Positions 9,623-57,645 are shown, counted from the first letter of the stretch. The stretch is DNA of 64,000 nucleotides from an uncultured Clostridia bacterium (GCA_934167965.1 CAKPMJ010000002.1:90907-154906), one strand, 5' to 3'. The notes: generated from the letters alone by a model not told the origin. Numbers and translations are program-made.

Positions 9623-10261
9623 TTGAAAAAAGAAGAAACTAATAACTTAATTGATATTTTAAGAAAAACATATCCTGAAGCCAAATGCAGCCTTGATTTT
9701 ACAACTCCATTCGAATTAGTTGTTGCTGTAATGTTATCTGCTCAATGTACTGATGAAAGAGTAAATTTAACAACGCCTACACTATTTGCAAAATGTAAAA
9801 CTATTCAAAACTTTGCAAACATAGATTTAACTGAACTTGAAAATATTATTCACCCTTGTGGATTCTATAAAAATAAGGCAAAAAATATAAAAAAATGTGC
9901 AACTCAGGTTTTAGAAAATTTTAACGGCAAAGTTCCTTGCAATATGGATGATTTATTAACTCTAGCTGGAGTTGGTAGGAAAAGTGCAAATGTTATTTTA
10001 TTAGAAGTATTTGGAATAGCAAATGGGATTGCTGTAGATACACATTGTAAGAGAATTTCTAATAGAATTGGTTTGTCTAATCAAACTAATCCATCTAAAA
10101 TAGAACAAGATTTATTAAAACAAATTGACAAAGTTAACTTAAAAGATGTTAATCATTTATTCATTTGGCATGGAAGATATTGTTGTACTGCAAGAAATCC
10201 TAAATGTGATATTTGCTCTATACGTTCTTTTTGTAAAACATTAAAAAAAGATGAACATTAA
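9623..10261 (+). CDS. nth: Endonuclease III (DNA glycosylase/AP lyase, HhH-GPD, 4Fe-4S)
   Basis: HhH motif LLTLAGVGRKSANVIL, catalytic region IAVDTHCKRISNRIGL, C-terminal Cys cluster CCTARNPKCDICSIRSFC. Confidence 0.9.
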   Translation: MKKEETNNLIDILRKTYPEAKCSLDFTTPFELVVAVMLSAQCTDERVNLTTPTLFAKCKTIQNFANIDLTELENIIHPCGFYKNKAKNIKKCATQVLENFNGKVPCNMDDLLTLAGVGRKSANVILLEVFGIANGIAVDTHCKRISNRIGLSNQTNPSKIEQDLLKQIDKVNLKDVNHLFIWHGRYCCTARNPKCDICSIRSFCKTLKKDEH

Positions 10262-39420: not shown

Positions 39421-40110
39421 TTAATTATTTTCTTGTATTTTATATTGGCTAATATCAGGCTCTACAAATATACTATCATCTACATTGTCAAATTCATAAT
39501 AATATTCTGCAACTATTGCTTCTTCTGTTCCATCTTCTTTTACCGAGTATCCATTATTTGCTTTTAATGTAAGACCTGTTTGCTTTTGTATATATGCATT
39601 ATCTGCTATTAATGATTGAACAAAGTAACACTCTTTTCCTTCATATTTTACAGTTTTTATTTTACTCATAGCAGCTAATTTAAATAAACTCCATAAATTA
39701 TTCTCATAATCAAATCCCATAATCATAATTTGAGATTGTACTTCATCCTTATTAGCACCTAGCATCGCTATTTTAGAATCTTCAACATCTATATAAGTAT
39801 TTACTGTGTCTCCTTTGGTATATTGCATTAACTTTCTATTTTTACCTGTGTCTTTTTCTTTTAAAGTATATATCATCAAAGCATTCTCATCTTTTAAATA
39901 AAACTCTGTCATACCTCCAGAATTATTTACAATTTTTTCATAATGATTATTACTATTTATGTACTTTGAAACTTTATTGTTTAAATCTCTAATTATAATC
40001 ATCTTCCTAATTGTTATTGCTAAAAAAATAATTATCGCAATTAATATAAATAATAAAATAATTTTCAATACTTTCTTTTTATTCATATAAATTCCTCCTT
40101 TTCTAAGCAA
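39421..40110 (-). CDS. Hypothetical membrane-anchored protein
   Basis: N-terminal TM; no recognisable domain. Confidence 0.5.
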   Translation of the reverse strand: MLRKGGIYMNKKKVLKIILLFILIAIIIFLAITIRKMIIIRDLNNKVSKYINSNNHYEKIVNNSGGMTEFYLKDENALMIYTLKEKDTGKNRKLMQYTKGDTVNTYIDVEDSKIAMLGANKDEVQSQIMIMGFDYENNLWSLFKLAAMSKIKTVKYEGKECYFVQSLIADNAYIQKQTGLTLKANNGYSVKEDGTEEAIVAEYYYEFDNVDDSIFVEPDISQYKIQENN

Positions 40111-40298
40111 CCTTGCAATTCTGAGCTATTATATAATCTTTAGACCATTGGCTTTTCGTCATAAACTTTCATTTACTTTGCTTTTTAACCTATTTCTATT
40201 ATACCATATTTTAGCTTTTTTTTGCAAATGAGAACTTTTCTATAATAAAAAAAGTGAATTTCTGTTAATACAGTTTTTCACTTTTTTCTTAATTTACT

Positions 40299-45563: not shown

Positions 45564-45613
45564 TAATACTATTTTGTGTTTTAATTGTCAATATTTTATT
45601 TGAATTTTTTTAA

Positions 45614-45642
45614 GTTGTCAAAAAGGAACGTCCCCATTGACA
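45614..45642. repeat. 29-nt palindromic motif, copy A: TTGTCAAAAAGGAACGTCCCCATTGACAA
   Basis: 7-nt inverted arms TTGTCAA/TTGACAA around a 15-nt asymmetric core. Other copies at 57180..57208 and 49616..49682; degenerate copy at ~50829..50851. Confidence 0.7.
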
Positions 45643-45861
45643 ATAAGTTTGTATCTCACCAATCCCTTTTTCTATGTATTGCCTAACTTCATTATTTTCA
45701 ATATTCATTTTTTTGTAAGCATCAAATATCAAATTATATATTTCTTGTTTTGACTTATTTTTAAATTTCTCATATATATTTTGTACATCATTCAAATCTA
45801 ATTTTAATTCTAAATAATCTCTACCTGCTAATATACATCCTATTGCCTGTACTAAAACAAT

Positions 45862-47895: not shown

Positions 47896-49617
47896 ATGAC
47901 TTTTTGTGAACAATTAAACAAATATATAGAACAAATCAACTGCTCTTCTCAAGAGCTAGTAACAGCTTCAGAACTTTCATCTACCGTTATTAGCCGTTAT
48001 CGTAAAGGTGATAGAACACCAAATATAAAAAGTAAACAATTAAAACAATTAGCAGATGGATTATACAAACTTAGCAATGAAAAAAATATCAATTTATCTA
48101 AAGATGAAATATATAATTCTTTAGCTAATACTTTAAATGATATTACTATTGATTTTGAGCAACTAAGCCAAAACTTTAATGAAATTATTTCAACACTAAA
48201 TATTAGCATTGCCGACTTGTCTCGTTTTATGGGATATGACTCTTCTTTTATTTCTAAAATTCGTACTGGAAGTAGAAATCCCTCAAAACCTCAAGACTTT
48301 ATAACATCAGTTTGCAATTTTATTGTAACAAAATATAACTCTGAAAGTGATAAAAAGACAATCTCTCTTCTTATTGGCTGTAAATTAGAAGACCTAAAAA
48401 ATGACTCAGCTTATCTTGAAAAACTAACTAATTGGTTTTCTACTAATTCGTCATTATCTAAAGTTGGTAATTTTTTAAATAACTTGAATGATTTTGATCT
48501 AAATGAATATATAAAAGCAATTCACTTTGATGAAATGAAAGTTCCTTTTGTTCCATTTTATAAATCTGGAACAAAAAATTATTATGGAATTGAGGAAATG
48601 AAAAAAGGTGAAATAGACTTTTTCAAAGCTACTGTCCTTTCTAAATCAAATGAACCTATTTTTATGTGTAGTGATATGCCAATGGAAGATATGGCTAAAG
48701 ATGTTGATTTTGGCAAAAAGTGGATGTTTGCCATTGCAATGACTTTAAAGAAAGGACTGCACTTAAATATAATTCATAACCTTGACCGACCATTTAATGA
48801 AATGATGCTTGGTCTAGAAAGTTGGATTCCTATTTATATGACAGGACAAGTTTCTCCTTATTACCTAAAAGGTATACAAAATTCAGTTTATTGTCACTTA
48901 AATTACGTGTCAGGTGTTGCTGCACTTACTGGAGAATGTATAAGTGGTTATCATAATAGTGGAAAATACTTTTTAACAAGCAATAAAGCAGATGTCTCAT
49001 ACTATCAAACTAAATCTAAAAATTTACTTAATATTGCTAAACCTCTTATGGAAATCTACAGATCAGAATCAAAAAATGCTTTTATAGCATTTATGTCTGC
49101 AAATGCTAAACTTAATGGAACACGTAGAAGAATCTTATCTTCTTTGCCAATTCAAACCATTTCAGATGAATTACTATTAAAAATTTTAAAACGAAATAAC
49201 GTAAATGATAATGATATAAAAAATATAATGGATTCTATAAAAGAACAAAAACAAATCATTCAAACAATACTAAAAAATAATACAATTGAAGATGAAATAT
49301 CAGAAATTTCTAAGGAAGATTTTGATAATTGTACTCCTACTCTTTCTCTTTCAAATTGTTTTTATGAAAATAAAGTTTATTATAATTATGAAGAATATTT
49401 AGAACATTTAAATTTAACTAAAGATTTTGAAAAAAGTAATAAAAATTATAAATTATCTACCAATTATAAACATACTTTTAGGAACATACAAATTCACATA
49501 TCTGAAAATAATTGGGTTATGATTTCTAAAGACAATTGCCCTTCTATACATTTTGTAATACAACATCCTAAACTTAGAGATGCAATTGAAAACTTTATTC
49601 CACCTGTAGTTGAATAA
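47896..49617 (+). CDS. Large transcriptional regulator with two N-terminal XRE-type HTH domains. Probable true start is ATG 47896; the ORF track starts it at 47854.
   Basis: RBS GGAGG at 47886-47890. Two HTH-like segments (QELVTASELSSTVISRYRKGDRTP and IADLSRFMGYDSSFISKIRTGSRNP) followed by ~450 aa of unknown domain. Confidence 0.6.
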   Translation: MTFCEQLNKYIEQINCSSQELVTASELSSTVISRYRKGDRTPNIKSKQLKQLADGLYKLSNEKNINLSKDEIYNSLANTLNDITIDFEQLSQNFNEIISTLNISIADLSRFMGYDSSFISKIRTGSRNPSKPQDFITSVCNFIVTKYNSESDKKTISLLIGCKLEDLKNDSAYLEKLTNWFSTNSSLSKVGNFLNNLNDFDLNEYIKAIHFDEMKVPFVPFYKSGTKNYYGIEEMKKGEIDFFKATVLSKSNEPIFMCSDMPMEDMAKDVDFGKKWMFAIAMTLKKGLHLNIIHNLDRPFNEMMLGLESWIPIYMTGQVSPYYLKGIQNSVYCHLNYVSGVAALTGECISGYHNSGKYFLTSNKADVSYYQTKSKNLLNIAKPLMEIYRSESKNAFIAFMSANAKLNGTRRRILSSLPIQTISDELLLKILKRNNVNDNDIKNIMDSIKEQKQIIQTILKNNTIEDEISEISKEDFDNCTPTLSLSNCFYENKVYYNYEEYLEHLNLTKDFEKSNKNYKLSTNYKHTFRNIQIHISENNWVMISKDNCPSIHFVIQHPKLRDAIENFIPPVVE

Positions 49618-49682
49618 GAGTGTCAAATGGGACGTTCCTTAATGACAATATATTGTCATTAAGGAACGTCCCATTTGACACT
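49616..49682. repeat. Perfect 67-nt palindrome made of two inverted copies of the 29-nt motif (GAGTGTCAAATGGGACGTTCCTTAATGACAATAT|ATATTGTCATTAAGGAACGTCCCATTTGACACTC)
   Basis: Read directly from the sequence; lies between convergent genes and may also act as a bidirectional terminator. Confidence 0.8.
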
Positions 49683-49690
49683 CTCTAACA

Positions 49691-50443
49691 TTAAATTCTA
49701 GTAGCCATAAGTATCTTTAATATTTTCTCCTTTGGGGTAAACACTTTATATTTAATAAAGTATTTCTGAATTGGATTGAAAAATGTATCTAATAACAAAA
49801 TATCTTTTATCCTAAATTTCACTCCTTTTCTTTCTAAATAGTCACATGTAAATAATTTACATCCTATACATTTAGCATCACATGTATAATTTTCCTTATT
49901 TAAATACTCACACAATACTAATTTTGTTAATGGTCCTAAACATTTTATTCTAAAATGGTGACAACATCCAGTTAATGATTTGGCATTTCTTTTTTCTCCA
50001 CATTTATTATTTTGAAAATCACACAGATTTTTTCCATAAAAGTGGCTGTCTAAATAGTTGCATACTGTATCATAAATATAATTGTATCTATTGTAACACT
50101 TATCATAAAAAATTGCATTTATACCATTAATAAAGTCTTTATGAAATATGTTGTTTTCATCATAATTTAATACATAGCCTATTATTATTTTATTATCTTC
50201 TTCTACACCTATCTTCACTTTTTGATGTAAAATCTTTGTTTTTACTTTAAGTAGTTTTCTTAACAACTTTTTATATTCTTTTTCATTAAATGTTCTAAAA
50301 TTTATTCTCAGTGTAAGTACACTTTTATTTTTTATTTCATTTGTACTAAAATTTATGATATCTATACTTCTTTCTTTGTTTTTTTCTTTATTATCCATAA
50401 TCTTCAAGTAATATTCATTATCTAGTTCTATATATTTTTCCAT
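49691..50443 (-). CDS. Hypothetical protein with a Cys-rich C-terminal half (CCHH..C..C..CxxC)
   Basis: ORF; no recognisable family; possible metal-binding protein. Confidence 0.45.
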   Translation of the reverse strand: MEKYIELDNEYYLKIMDNKEKNKERSIDIINFSTNEIKNKSVLTLRINFRTFNEKEYKKLLRKLLKVKTKILHQKVKIGVEEDNKIIIGYVLNYDENNIFHKDFINGINAIFYDKCYNRYNYIYDTVCNYLDSHFYGKNLCDFQNNKCGEKRNAKSLTGCCHHFRIKCLGPLTKLVLCEYLNKENYTCDAKCIGCKLFTCDYLERKGVKFRIKDILLLDTFFNPIQKYFIKYKVFTPKEKILKILMATRI

Positions 50444-50760: not shown

Positions 50761-50774
50761 GTAGTACCCCAAAT

Positions 50775-50818
50775 AACAAGACTGTTCAACAAATGTTGAA
50801 CAGTCTTGTTATTTTTTT
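50775..50818 (+). terminator. Intrinsic terminator (16-bp stem AACAAGACTGTTCAAC...GTTGAACAGTCTTGTT plus T7)
   Basis: Read from the sequence. Confidence 0.8.
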
Positions 50819-50898
50819 ATTAAAAGGTGCCAAAAGGAACATCCCTCTCGACCTTTCCATCAACACAAAAACCATCTCATTAAGAGATGGTTTAAATA

Positions 50899-50975
50899 TG
50901 GTGCTCCCTCAAGGATTCGAACCTTGGACCCACCGGTTATGAGCCGGTTGCTCTGACCAACTGAGCTAAGGGAGC
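50899..50975 (-). tRNA. tRNA with anticodon CAT (Met; could be tRNA-Ile2 after lysidine modification)
   Basis: Minus-strand cloverleaf GCTCCCT/TAGCTCAGTTGGTCAGAGC/AACCGGCTCATAACCGG/TGGGTC/CAAGGTTCGAATCCTTG/AGGGAGC-A-CCA, with encoded CCA. A terminator hairpin follows at 50865-50892. Confidence 0.85.
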
Positions 50976-55910: not shown

Positions 55911-57149
55911 CTACTTTATATAAAGTGTGAGGCGAGTAGAATAGTCGCTGCTAGTAAGGTACGGATGGTTGTTGGGGCGATTGCTAGGTGAAAAGCTAAG
56001 GCTGAAATAACCACCTCTGAGAGCACGACGGCTAGTGTAGTTCGCCTCTAATGTCCATTCATAACTATTTCCTAGTAAATCATATATATTGTTTAATTTA
56101 TCTGTTGAGACTGTTCCTGTTTTTCGTGTTGTATTTCTACTTGTTGTTACTCCTTCTAAATTTGTTGGAGTTTTTGATGTTACGTCTATTCCATTTTCTT
56201 GCATCCATATCATCATTTGATCATATTGACTTCCCCATATCATACTACTTCCTACTACATTTTTTATTTTATCTTGCCCACTATATTCTTTATCTTTTTG
56301 ATATAATCCATACCATGTATTTGCACTACTTGTTTCTGCTGTTGCCGATGCTACGCCAGATATTGATTGAGCATTTTTTGTTTCTGTGTTTAAACTTGTT
56401 TCATATCTTCCTACATAGAATCCTTTATTTTTTTCTACATATTTTATCATTTCATCAAATTCGTTTTGTAATTGTGTTTTCCATTTCGTTAGTATCTCTT
56501 CATCTGTTCCATTTAAACCTACTATACTTTTCAATAAAGCTATTCCTTTTGCATCATCCCCTGTTATTGCATCTCCATATGCTGTACTTGATAAATAGTC
56601 TGGCTCTCTGTAGTCTGTTGCACCTGTCCATTTCATAACTCCTGATGTCTCTGTCCAACTATTCGCTCTATATCCACTTGAAGTAAAGTTATAAAGTTTT
56701 CCTAGTTTCTTTTCTTCTGCATTTGTTCCATACATTTTACTTACATCTTTTACTGGCACCCATACAAATTCACTATTATCTGGTGCTACTACTACTATTC
56801 CTTTTTTTACTTCTGTCGGTGAATCTTCTTTTATTTTAAATCCTACTGGCACTACTATAGTTTCTCCATTGTCATCTTGTAATTTTACTTTTCTTCCTTC
56901 TATAACTTTATTTTTATTGTCTTTTACCTTTCCTAAGTTTCCTGTACTTTCTTCCATTAAAATTTCTAAATCTGTTAAGTCTTCTGTTTCATTTGTTTGT
57001 GCTTCTTCTGTTTTCATTTTAGCATCTGCAGCCTTCTTTAATATTCCATTTTCTCCTGATAGCATTGCTATTGCGACTCCTGCTAATATCAATAACACTA
57101 TTATTGTTATTACTAGTGCTATTAATGTTATTCCATTGTTTTTCTTCAT
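55911..57149 (-). CDS. DGR target protein 2 (paralog of 26339..27589) with a distinct C-terminal variable region
   Basis: Same pilin-like N-terminus (NGITLIALVITIIVLLILAGVAIAMLSGENGIL) and FGE/CLec domain. The C-terminal ~45 aa differ (…EANYTSRRALRGGYFSLSFSPSNRPNNHPYLTSSDYSTRLTLYIK). Confidence 0.8.
   Translation of the reverse strand: MKKNNGITLIALVITIIVLLILAGVAIAMLSGENGILKKAADAKMKTEEAQTNETEDLTDLEILMEESTGNLGKVKDNKNKVIEGRKVKLQDDNGETIVVPVGFKIKEDSPTEVKKGIVVVAPDNSEFVWVPVKDVSKMYGTNAEEKKLGKLYNFTSSGYRANSWTETSGVMKWTGATDYREPDYLSSTAYGDAITGDDAKGIALLKSIVGLNGTDEEILTKWKTQLQNEFDEMIKYVEKNKGFYVGRYETSLNTETKNAQSISGVASATAETSSANTWYGLYQKDKEYSGQDKIKNVVGSSMIWGSQYDQMMIWMQENGIDVTSKTPTNLEGVTTSRNTTRKTGTVSTDKLNNIYDLLGNSYEWTLEANYTSRRALRGGYFSLSFSPSNRPNNHPYLTSSDYSTRLTLYIK
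55946..56080 (-). other. DGR variable region VR2
   Basis: See VR1; mismatches are confined to this block. Confidence 0.75.
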
Positions 57150-57179
57150 ATTATTTCTTCCTTTCTTTATTTTTTATTA

Positions 57180-57208
57180 TTGTCAAAAATGAACGTCCCC
57201 ATTGACAA
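57180..57208. repeat. 29-nt palindromic motif, copy B (TTGTCAAAAATGAACGTCCCCATTGACAA), 30 nt upstream of the target-2 start codon
   Basis: 27/29 identical to copy A. Confidence 0.7.
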
Positions 57209-57324
57209 CTTTAATGCACCATAAAAAGACAATATAAACTTATCCAGTATCATAATACTTACCAGATAAGCCAATATTGCCTTTTTCACTATATATCTTA
57301 TTATTTATTTTTACTAAACTAATT

Positions 57325-57344
57325 GTGTGTGTGTGTGTGTGTGT
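57325..57344. repeat. (GT)10 dinucleotide microsatellite
   Basis: Read directly: GTGTGTGTGTGTGTGTGTGT, ~175 nt upstream of DGR target 2, between divergent genes. Confidence 0.9.
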
Positions 57345-57645
57345 ACAGCCTCAACGGTTCTAGCTTTTTTCATCTTTTACACCAACTTTCTACTTTATTC
57401 TTTTTATATTTTACTAAAACATCATTTTCTTGTAAATACTTTTTGCCAATTTATTTAAAAATTTGTATAATTTATAGTACACTAAAATTATAACTAACAT
57501 TAATTAATAAAATTCTGCAAAAATGTTTCAAAATTTTTCCAATAAATACATCTATAAATTATTGCAATTTCAATGATTTTGTAATATAATAGTTCTATAT
57601 AAATTTCATAAAATCATTATAAATTTTTTAGGAGGATGAAATTAT

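Follow-up and report, generated by a model that had tools for sequence, protein, structure and literature searches.

A perfect 68-nt palindrome in an uncultured Clostridia bacterium as a probable REPIN-like element

The palindrome and its two alleles

We analyzed 64,000 nucleotides of one strand from an uncultured Clostridia bacterium (GCA_934167965.1 CAKPMJ010000002.1:90907-154906; the window, with coordinates counted from its first letter unless another locus is named), and in particular a perfect inverted repeat at 49617-49684 that lies between the 3' ends of two convergent genes. On its left, the plus-strand gene at 47896-49617 encodes a 573-aa, Xre-type helix-turn-helix (HTH) regulator, with the ATG start taken as in the gene calls of conspecific contigs, and on its right the minus-strand gene at 49691-50443 encodes a 250-aa Cys-rich protein with no family match. 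The two arms (49617-49650 and 49651-49684) are 34 nt each, 100% complementary and separated by 0 nt, giving a 68-nt palindrome with no central unpaired base. A first-pass annotation, made from the sequence alone, had recognized a perfect palindrome here and described it as 33+1+33 nt at 49616-49682, starting 1 nt past the regulator stop and lying immediately before the stop of the Cys-rich gene. The perfect repeat is indeed present, but its edges are other than described: the 5' edge is the last A of the regulator TAA stop (49615-49617), a 1-nt overlap, and the 3' edge adjoins the end of the convergent gene at a distance of 6 nt from its stop (49691-49693). The gap separating the convergent stop codons is 73 nt, of which the palindrome occupies 68, leaving room for no other hairpin.

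The palindrome lies far outside chance expectation: from base composition, 3e-13 inverted repeats with arms this long (34 nt or more) are predicted for the window. The longest arms in 30 first-order Markov simulations are 9-14 nt, and the second-longest real inverted-repeat arm in the window, at 21 nt, is a terminator stem. The palindrome folds strongly both as single-stranded DNA (ssDNA; -38 kcal/mol, z = -12.8) and as RNA (-55.9 kcal/mol, z = -13.5). No direct repeat that could be a target-site duplication surrounds it (..GAATA/AGAG..CTCT/CTAAC.., slashes marking its edges), and an Rfam scan of the window returns a tRNA and a cyclic di-GMP (c-di-GMP)-I riboswitch only, with no match at the palindrome.

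Wherever the region is covered, the palindrome recurs at the identical place in eight contigs of the same species that come from metagenome samples assembled separately. These contigs represent two strain lineages that are 1-1.5% divergent across 6.1 kb and whose palindromes differ at positions 12 (T>G) and 57 (A>C) only; because the two differences fall at mirror positions, both alleles are perfect palindromes. By a rough estimate, the chance that two given substitutions form a mirror complementary pair is ~1/67 x 1/3, or ~0.5%. The arms also share bases beyond the conserved unit described below, AGAG at the outer end and ATA at the inner end, and together with the mirror changes this points to copying between the arms at the locus and not to two separate insertions. 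A known mechanism of arm-to-arm correction is template switching within quasi-palindromes, and selection for the hairpin is an alternative explanation of the mirror alleles. With both known alleles perfect, the locus provides a small natural example of the concerted evolution of palindrome arms.

The repeat unit in the window and in other Clostridia

Each arm of the palindrome is one copy of a hairpin unit of ~35 nt that resembles repetitive extragenic palindromic (REP) sequences. A search with the palindrome core returns related sites at 45615-45641 and 57180-57206, and the pattern GTCAA-N2-GGGACGTTC-N5-TGACAA has four matches in the window against 0 expected, two of the four being the palindrome arms; it is this match, shared by the arms and the two other sites, that identifies each arm as one unit copy. 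The unit consensus comprises a stem, [G/T]TGYCAAA...TTTGRCA[A/C], and an apex, GGGACGTYC, and is near-symmetric, approximately gTTGTCAA-nn-GGGACGTTCC-nnn-TTGACAAc. A covariance model, denoted R1, recovers the identical four units and no other convincing match in the 64 kb, for a window total of three loci, every one extragenic: one doublet and two singlets.

The left unit of the doublet, AGAGTGTCAAATGGGACGTTCCTTAATGACAATAT, is at 49617-49651 (+; R1 37 bits, E = 3e-8, model positions 1-35, the unit being itself in the training set), and the right unit, likewise placed by R1 at 49650-49684 (-), is its exact reverse complement, with a 2-nt central overlap. Singleton REP-like unit A, TTGTCAATGGGGACGTTCCTTTTTGACAA, at 45612-45646 (-; R1 45.1 bits), is upstream of a GntR (YtrA-like)/ABC operon, and singleton REP-like unit C, TTGTCAATGGGGACGTTCATTTTTGACAA, at 57177-57211 (-; R1 40.9 bits), is 28 nt upstream of the start codon of a pilin-like gene (55911-57149, -).

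Outside the window, the exact pattern occurs at only seven loci in 185,579 species genomes (one genome per species), all of them in metagenome-assembled genomes (MAGs) of uncultured Clostridia with 25-31% GC; the window's own species is not among these seven. The MAG sites are found between unrelated housekeeping genes, e.g., recJ and relA, or genes for acetyl-CoA carboxylase subunits (identified by eye from translations), and upstream of an epimerase gene. The units there are mostly paired, 36-80 nt apart, and some carry complementary arm changes, e.g., TTGCCAAAA...TTTTGGCAA. The exact pattern has no match in viral contigs, and the palindrome region has none in phage or plasmid records.

The hairpin was evaluated in an alignment of 21 units, from which R1 was built. 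We find that 90.9% of the cells are paired vs 77.8% in shuffles, that 8 of the 12 stem pairs change on both sides, with one pair showing all four Watson-Crick types, and that none of 500 shuffles reaches the observed pairing and covariation, with no slid register close; part of the 21 units had been pre-selected with an arm-complementarity filter, which weakens this covariation count. With a length of 35 nt and a 12-pair stem, the unit is a short imperfect palindrome in the size range of REP sequences (~20-40 nt). REP sequences are described as carrying a tag, GTAG (or CGTC), at one unpaired end (PMC3733652); GTAG is absent from the stem foot of every aligned unit, and CGTC/ACGT is found in the apex and not at the end.

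REPINs are inverted REP doublets that form hairpins and are related to the flanks of genes for REP-associated tyrosine transposases (RAYTs), and compensatory changes are common in them (PMC3116915). Three inverted doublets from other loci (L001, L007 and L026) fold into 26-35-bp hairpins with spacers of 42, 24 and 61 nt, respectively, the L026 doublet having perfect 34-nt arms. Counting that of the window, there are five independent inverted doublets, and each of them is arranged (+,-), the orientation most often seen also for the units around the transposase gene discussed below. The palindrome is an inverted unit pair of this kind that forms an ssDNA hairpin, with a spacer of 0 nt vs 24-61 nt elsewhere, and we accordingly list 49617-49684 as an inverted, convergent (+/-), zero-spacer doublet of REP-like units that is REPIN-like, on the combined basis of inverted-repeat search, covariance model, folding and simulations. 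At L037 (2647-3350), a (+,-) unit pair brackets the gene for ribosomal protein S15 (rpsO), between clpC and pnp; in this case, the repeat doublet apparently enclosed a housekeeping gene.

A Y1 transposase gene flanked by the units

In a related lineage, L002, two inverted units bracket a gene for a 251-aa protein, residues 15-125 of which match Pfam Y1_Tnp (E = 1.6e-12). The best NCBIfam model for this protein is the REP-associated tyrosine transposase (REP_Tyr_transpos) at 66.6 bits, a score below the curated cut-off of 80, with the IS200 model at 23.9 bits. Homologs with 42-94% protein identity have queA (Queuosine_synth) on one side and tgt (TGT) on the other in each of the eight lineages examined (loci L002 and L025-L039, e.g., L025 8881-12725), and this fixed site suggests a vertically inherited, domesticated gene. 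Units are present on both sides of the transposase gene in eight relative lineages, plain inverted (+,-) in most, and their stems differ among lineages with base pairing kept (GTGCCAAAAGGGACGTACC..., GTGGCAAAAGGGCCAGCC..., GTGACAAGAGGGGCGCCCC...). R1 detects the transposase-flanking units, with E of 1e-9 to 1e-11, also in three lineages outside model building (L035/36, L037/38 and L039), which came from look-ups P0128, P0138 and P0136 for the transposase gene belonging to the species of the window. A metagenome scan with the L002 transposase gives a single short locus, L024 (a JGI contig), with a 36%-identical homolog flanked by inverted CACGGGGACGGAGG. Invariant in the transposases are the NHxH (HUH) motif and YIHNNPxKA, which we take to be the motif with the RAYT catalytic tyrosine.

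Two further features accompany the transposase gene. In L002/L025 and L037/L038, the next gene after it is a 255-261-aa open reading frame (ORF) without a family match. All lineages have a conserved box, TAG(T)GGGGC, 15-20 nt downstream of the left unit and 30-40 nt upstream of the start codon of the transposase gene (L025 ~9965-9975, and the equivalent place in L026, L029, L032, L035 and L037); this box may serve as a promoter, as a leader or to guide cleavage.

Among known systems, the TIRYT/TIRtron group is the best overall fit. The flanks of TIRYT genes are inverted repeats that share a G-rich GGGGWSAS and form moderately abundant families, some self-complementary and often dimers (PMC3733652), and the TnpA_REP-like subclass 2.1, which has a C-terminal HTH (Bac_DnaA_C, HTH_23 or HTH_28), was later equated with TIRYTs (PMC6006769). 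The system described here likewise combines a RAYT-like Y1 protein, a C-terminal extension that is possibly HTH-like, and G-rich inverted-repeat flanks, and its flanking repeats also appear to form moderately abundant families, some self-complementary and often dimers. The published terminal inverted repeat, GGGGWSAS, differs from GGGGACGT/GGGACGTYC here (6/8 positions agree), and the transposase flanks bear GGGACGTTCC, GGGACGTACC, GGGCCAGCC, GGGGCGMCCC, GGGGACGTCCC and GGGGACGG, which are G-rich and similar but not strict GGGGWSAS. The described TIRYT examples are mainly from Proteobacteria and Acidobacteria, and the likeness to the subclass is one of published description.

REPIN/RAYT systems (Pseudomonas fluorescens SBW25, and the REP sequences and bacterial interspersed mosaic elements (BIMEs) of E. 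coli; PMC3116915, PMC5581495) resemble ours in the inverted units, the long hairpin, the compensatory changes and the occurrence of singlets beside doublets, and in a cognate Y1 gene that is flanked by units at a fixed chromosomal place, suggesting vertical inheritance. Deletion of the REPIN spacer can yield a long palindrome (PMC3116915), and the window copy fits this published outcome as the zero-spacer case. Unlike these systems, ours has no GTAG, its conserved block is the apex GGGACGTYC and not the stem foot, and the palindrome has zero spacer and perfect arms; the host belongs to low-GC Clostridia vs Proteobacteria, the copy number is apparently modest at three loci per 64 kb, and the transposase is ~250 aa with a C-terminal extension. 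Group 1 RAYTs have been reported in Clostridia (PMC5581495).

Like the present system, IS200/IS605 elements encode an enzyme with the HUH/Y1 fold (Pfam Y1_Tnp), have an imperfect hairpin on each side of the gene and lack a target-site duplication. Their TnpA acts by single-strand 'peel and paste', which provides a mechanistic model for the cutting and moving of units as ssDNA. They are unlike it in that the RAYT model outscores the IS200 model, that the gene site is constant in the eight lineages sampled, and that the dispersed item here is the short repeat and not the gene. The suggestion of the first-pass annotation that the palindrome is a MITE-like mobile insertion (miniature inverted-repeat transposable element) holds insofar as this is a dispersed repeat whose relatives flank a Y1 transposase gene; it is not a strict MITE, being 68 nt vs 70-300 bp, without a target-site duplication or DDE-type terminal repeats, and connected to an enzyme of the Y1/HUH rather than the DDE family. 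The papers searched describe neither the clostridial repeat family nor the queA-tgt transposase location, and they report no REP/REPIN-type family from gut Clostridia.

Interpretation of the palindrome and its surroundings

We consider it probable that the palindrome is a REPIN-like element, i.e., two ~35-nt REP hairpin units, convergent and without a spacer, that belong to a lineage-restricted family of low-GC gut Clostridia, would have been spread by a transposase, and may now serve as a 3'-end barrier. The Y1 transposase would have spread the family by working on hairpins in single-stranded DNA at replication forks, in the manner of IS200/IS605 and REP/RAYT, and the zero-spacer palindrome would derive from a doublet or from one unit that was copied by fold-back together with a few flanking bases. 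Its perfection could then be maintained by template switching or gene conversion within the palindrome, by selection for the hairpin, or by both. Once transcribed, the hairpin would be a 3'-end barrier for both convergent mRNAs, blocking read-through and stopping exonucleases, and would replace the ordinary terminator found after the regulator gene in related species. This reading explains a striking palindrome as an ordinary kind of bacterial repeat and not as a special site, and the unit, the covariance model, the transposase and the queA-tgt location together provide a searchable definition of a REP/REPIN-type family of gut Clostridia.

A more far-reaching proposal, for and against which we see the case as evenly balanced, is that of an undescribed clostridial REPIN-RAYT system in which the gene is fixed between queA and tgt, the apex is kept, the stems co-evolve with the enzyme, and doublets collapse to concerted perfect palindromes. 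If true, the picture of REPINs as a 'vertically inherited replicator' would come to include Firmicutes, and the window would offer a natural example of a perfect 68-bp palindrome that is stably retained between genes.

Several observations weigh against the REPIN-like reading, beyond the pre-selection of units, the sub-cut-off RAYT score and the modest copy number already mentioned. Within the palindrome, the individual stem of each unit is weak, at ~5 bp (sequence read by eye). The C-terminal 104 aa of the L002 protein give sub-threshold HTH matches only (HTH_11 22.1, HTH_28 19.9 and HTH_23 15.5 bits), and a PDB sequence search with the transposase gives no match. A tblastn search of the 64-kb window returns no RAYT-like gene, and that of the species to which the window belongs was not found, three look-ups giving other lineages. 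The strain polymorphism in presence or absence that the first-pass annotation proposed to look for is not seen, as all eight conspecific contigs have the palindrome and none is empty. Nor is there a true empty orthologous site in other species, because the gene downstream of the regulator in the nearest relatives is unrelated to the Cys-rich gene: a 243-aa convergent gene of L016 was considered as the Cys-rich ortholog and rejected, with no similarity by BLASTP, and the between-species comparison is therefore limited to the regulator 3' end. Finally, as the palindrome lacks a T-run, a role as terminator or 3'-end barrier can be arrived at by inference only.

The alternative that fares best, and is itself improbable, is a bidirectional terminator that evolved in place and is unrelated to mobile DNA. 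Its merits are those of position and stability: the palindrome fills 68 of the 73 nt exactly between the convergent stops, the predicted RNA hairpin is strong (-55.9 kcal/mol), and the equivalent position after the regulator orthologs of other species is occupied by a terminator, an ordinary stem-loop with a T-run following the gene in species whose regulator is 70-74% identical. An intrinsic (Rho-independent) terminator is a stem-loop directly before a T/U-run, but neither strand of the palindrome has one (tails CTAACATT on the plus and TATTCAAC on the minus strand), and a terminator scan that calls nine nearby terminators, including those at neighbouring gene ends, does not call it. The 34 perfect pairs are far in excess of what a terminator needs, and the sequence is shared with sites that are not terminators, i.e., upstream of genes (copies A and C) and around the Y1 transposase gene in eight lineages. 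A conserved terminator at this place in all relatives, which the first-pass annotation had named as the competing explanation, is likewise not what we find: the species with 70-74%-identical regulator orthologs have ordinary terminators, and an R1 search of ~155 kb from four of them yields no unit. A terminator role may be a secondary effect of the repeat. REP sequences in enterobacteria have been reported as read-through blocks and 3'-exonuclease stops, and by analogy it is reasonable to infer that the palindrome would act as a two-way read-through block and 3'-exonuclease stop.

Somewhat less probable again is an operator function, in which the unit would be bound by a dimeric transcription factor, e.g., the YtrA-like GntR encoded near copy A or the adjacent regulator, which has two HTH motifs, the palindrome then being a double operator. 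The unit is a near-symmetric site of ~29 bp, TTGTCAA-N15-TTGACAA, and YtrA-type regulators use inverted repeats with long spacers; copy A overlaps a -35 hexamer that is predicted for the GntR operon, and copy C is close upstream of a gene start. The palindrome itself, however, is at two 3' ends and not at a promoter, and orthologs of the two-HTH regulator occur in species without a unit within 10 kb on either side. Moreover, units bracket the queA-tgt transposase gene, those of other MAGs lie between co-directional housekeeping genes, and covarying stems with a constant apex are the pattern of a structure and not of half-sites.

A recombination or replication site (att, dif or cer-like, a single-strand origin, or a prophage or island boundary by tRNA-Met), as also put forward in the first-pass annotation, is very unlikely. 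In its favour, cruciform extrusion is possible for long perfect palindromes, tRNA-Met is encoded 1.2 kb away, and the Cys-rich gene is not conserved beside the regulator in related species. Against it, the adjacent genes include none for an integrase, a recombinase or replication, searches of phage, plasmid and viral contigs return nothing similar, we noticed no direct repeat of the tRNA 3' end, and the repeat family accounts for the full sequence. An assembly artefact in the form of a chimeric fold-back can be dismissed: although contigs L013 and L015 end at or inside the palindrome, indicating that assemblers struggle with it, its presence in eight conspecific contigs from separate assemblies, six of which read through into unique flanks, and the existence of two natural alleles show that it is real. 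The palindrome is a breakpoint of metagenome assembly, and this is of practical concern wherever such palindromes occur.

The remaining observations concern the singleton units and the neighbouring genes. The outer arm of copy A reads as a perfect TTGACA, followed after 17 nt by TAAAAT (45593-45621, -), an 11/12 match to the sigma-70 consensus, and this promoter-like site stands in tandem with a second one upstream of the GntR/ABC operon; copy A may thus donate a -35 box. Near copy C, and upstream of the pilin-like gene, which encodes an N-terminal methylation motif, a (GT)10 microsatellite at 57326-57345 is a possible phase-variation tract. We also considered a coding reading of the unit, which gives C-Q-W/M-G-R-S-F/L in one frame, and rejected it because copy C follows stops or sits in no ORF and because units occur in both orientations relative to genes. 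A 61-aa ORF (45610-45795, -) terminates inside copy A with ...CQWGRSFLTT, and the palindrome, read in frame past the regulator stop, gives ECQMGRSLMTIYCH followed by a stop, similar to the end of that ORF; we judge these shared peptide readings to be a coincidence of the repeat sequence.

Downstream of the tRNA-Met gene (50899-50975, -), three successive hairpins are found within 50771-50893. The first is a terminator (50869-50893) and the last a 21-nt perfect inverted repeat (50771-50814) with T-runs on both sides. Between them, at 50822-50857 (-), is a possible decayed unit with the core GGGATGTTCC, whose arms are no longer complementary and whose R1 score of 13.1 bits (E = 0.5) is weak evidence. 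The family of the regulator is unnamed and very large (7,625 matches among 8,000 scored candidates); orthologs with 70-74% identity are present in many gut Clostridia, and in some lineages a sortase gene adjoins. The c-di-GMP-I riboswitch at 40103-40191 (-) scores 45.1 bits (gathering score 35) and is directly upstream of a 229-aa ORF (39421-40110).

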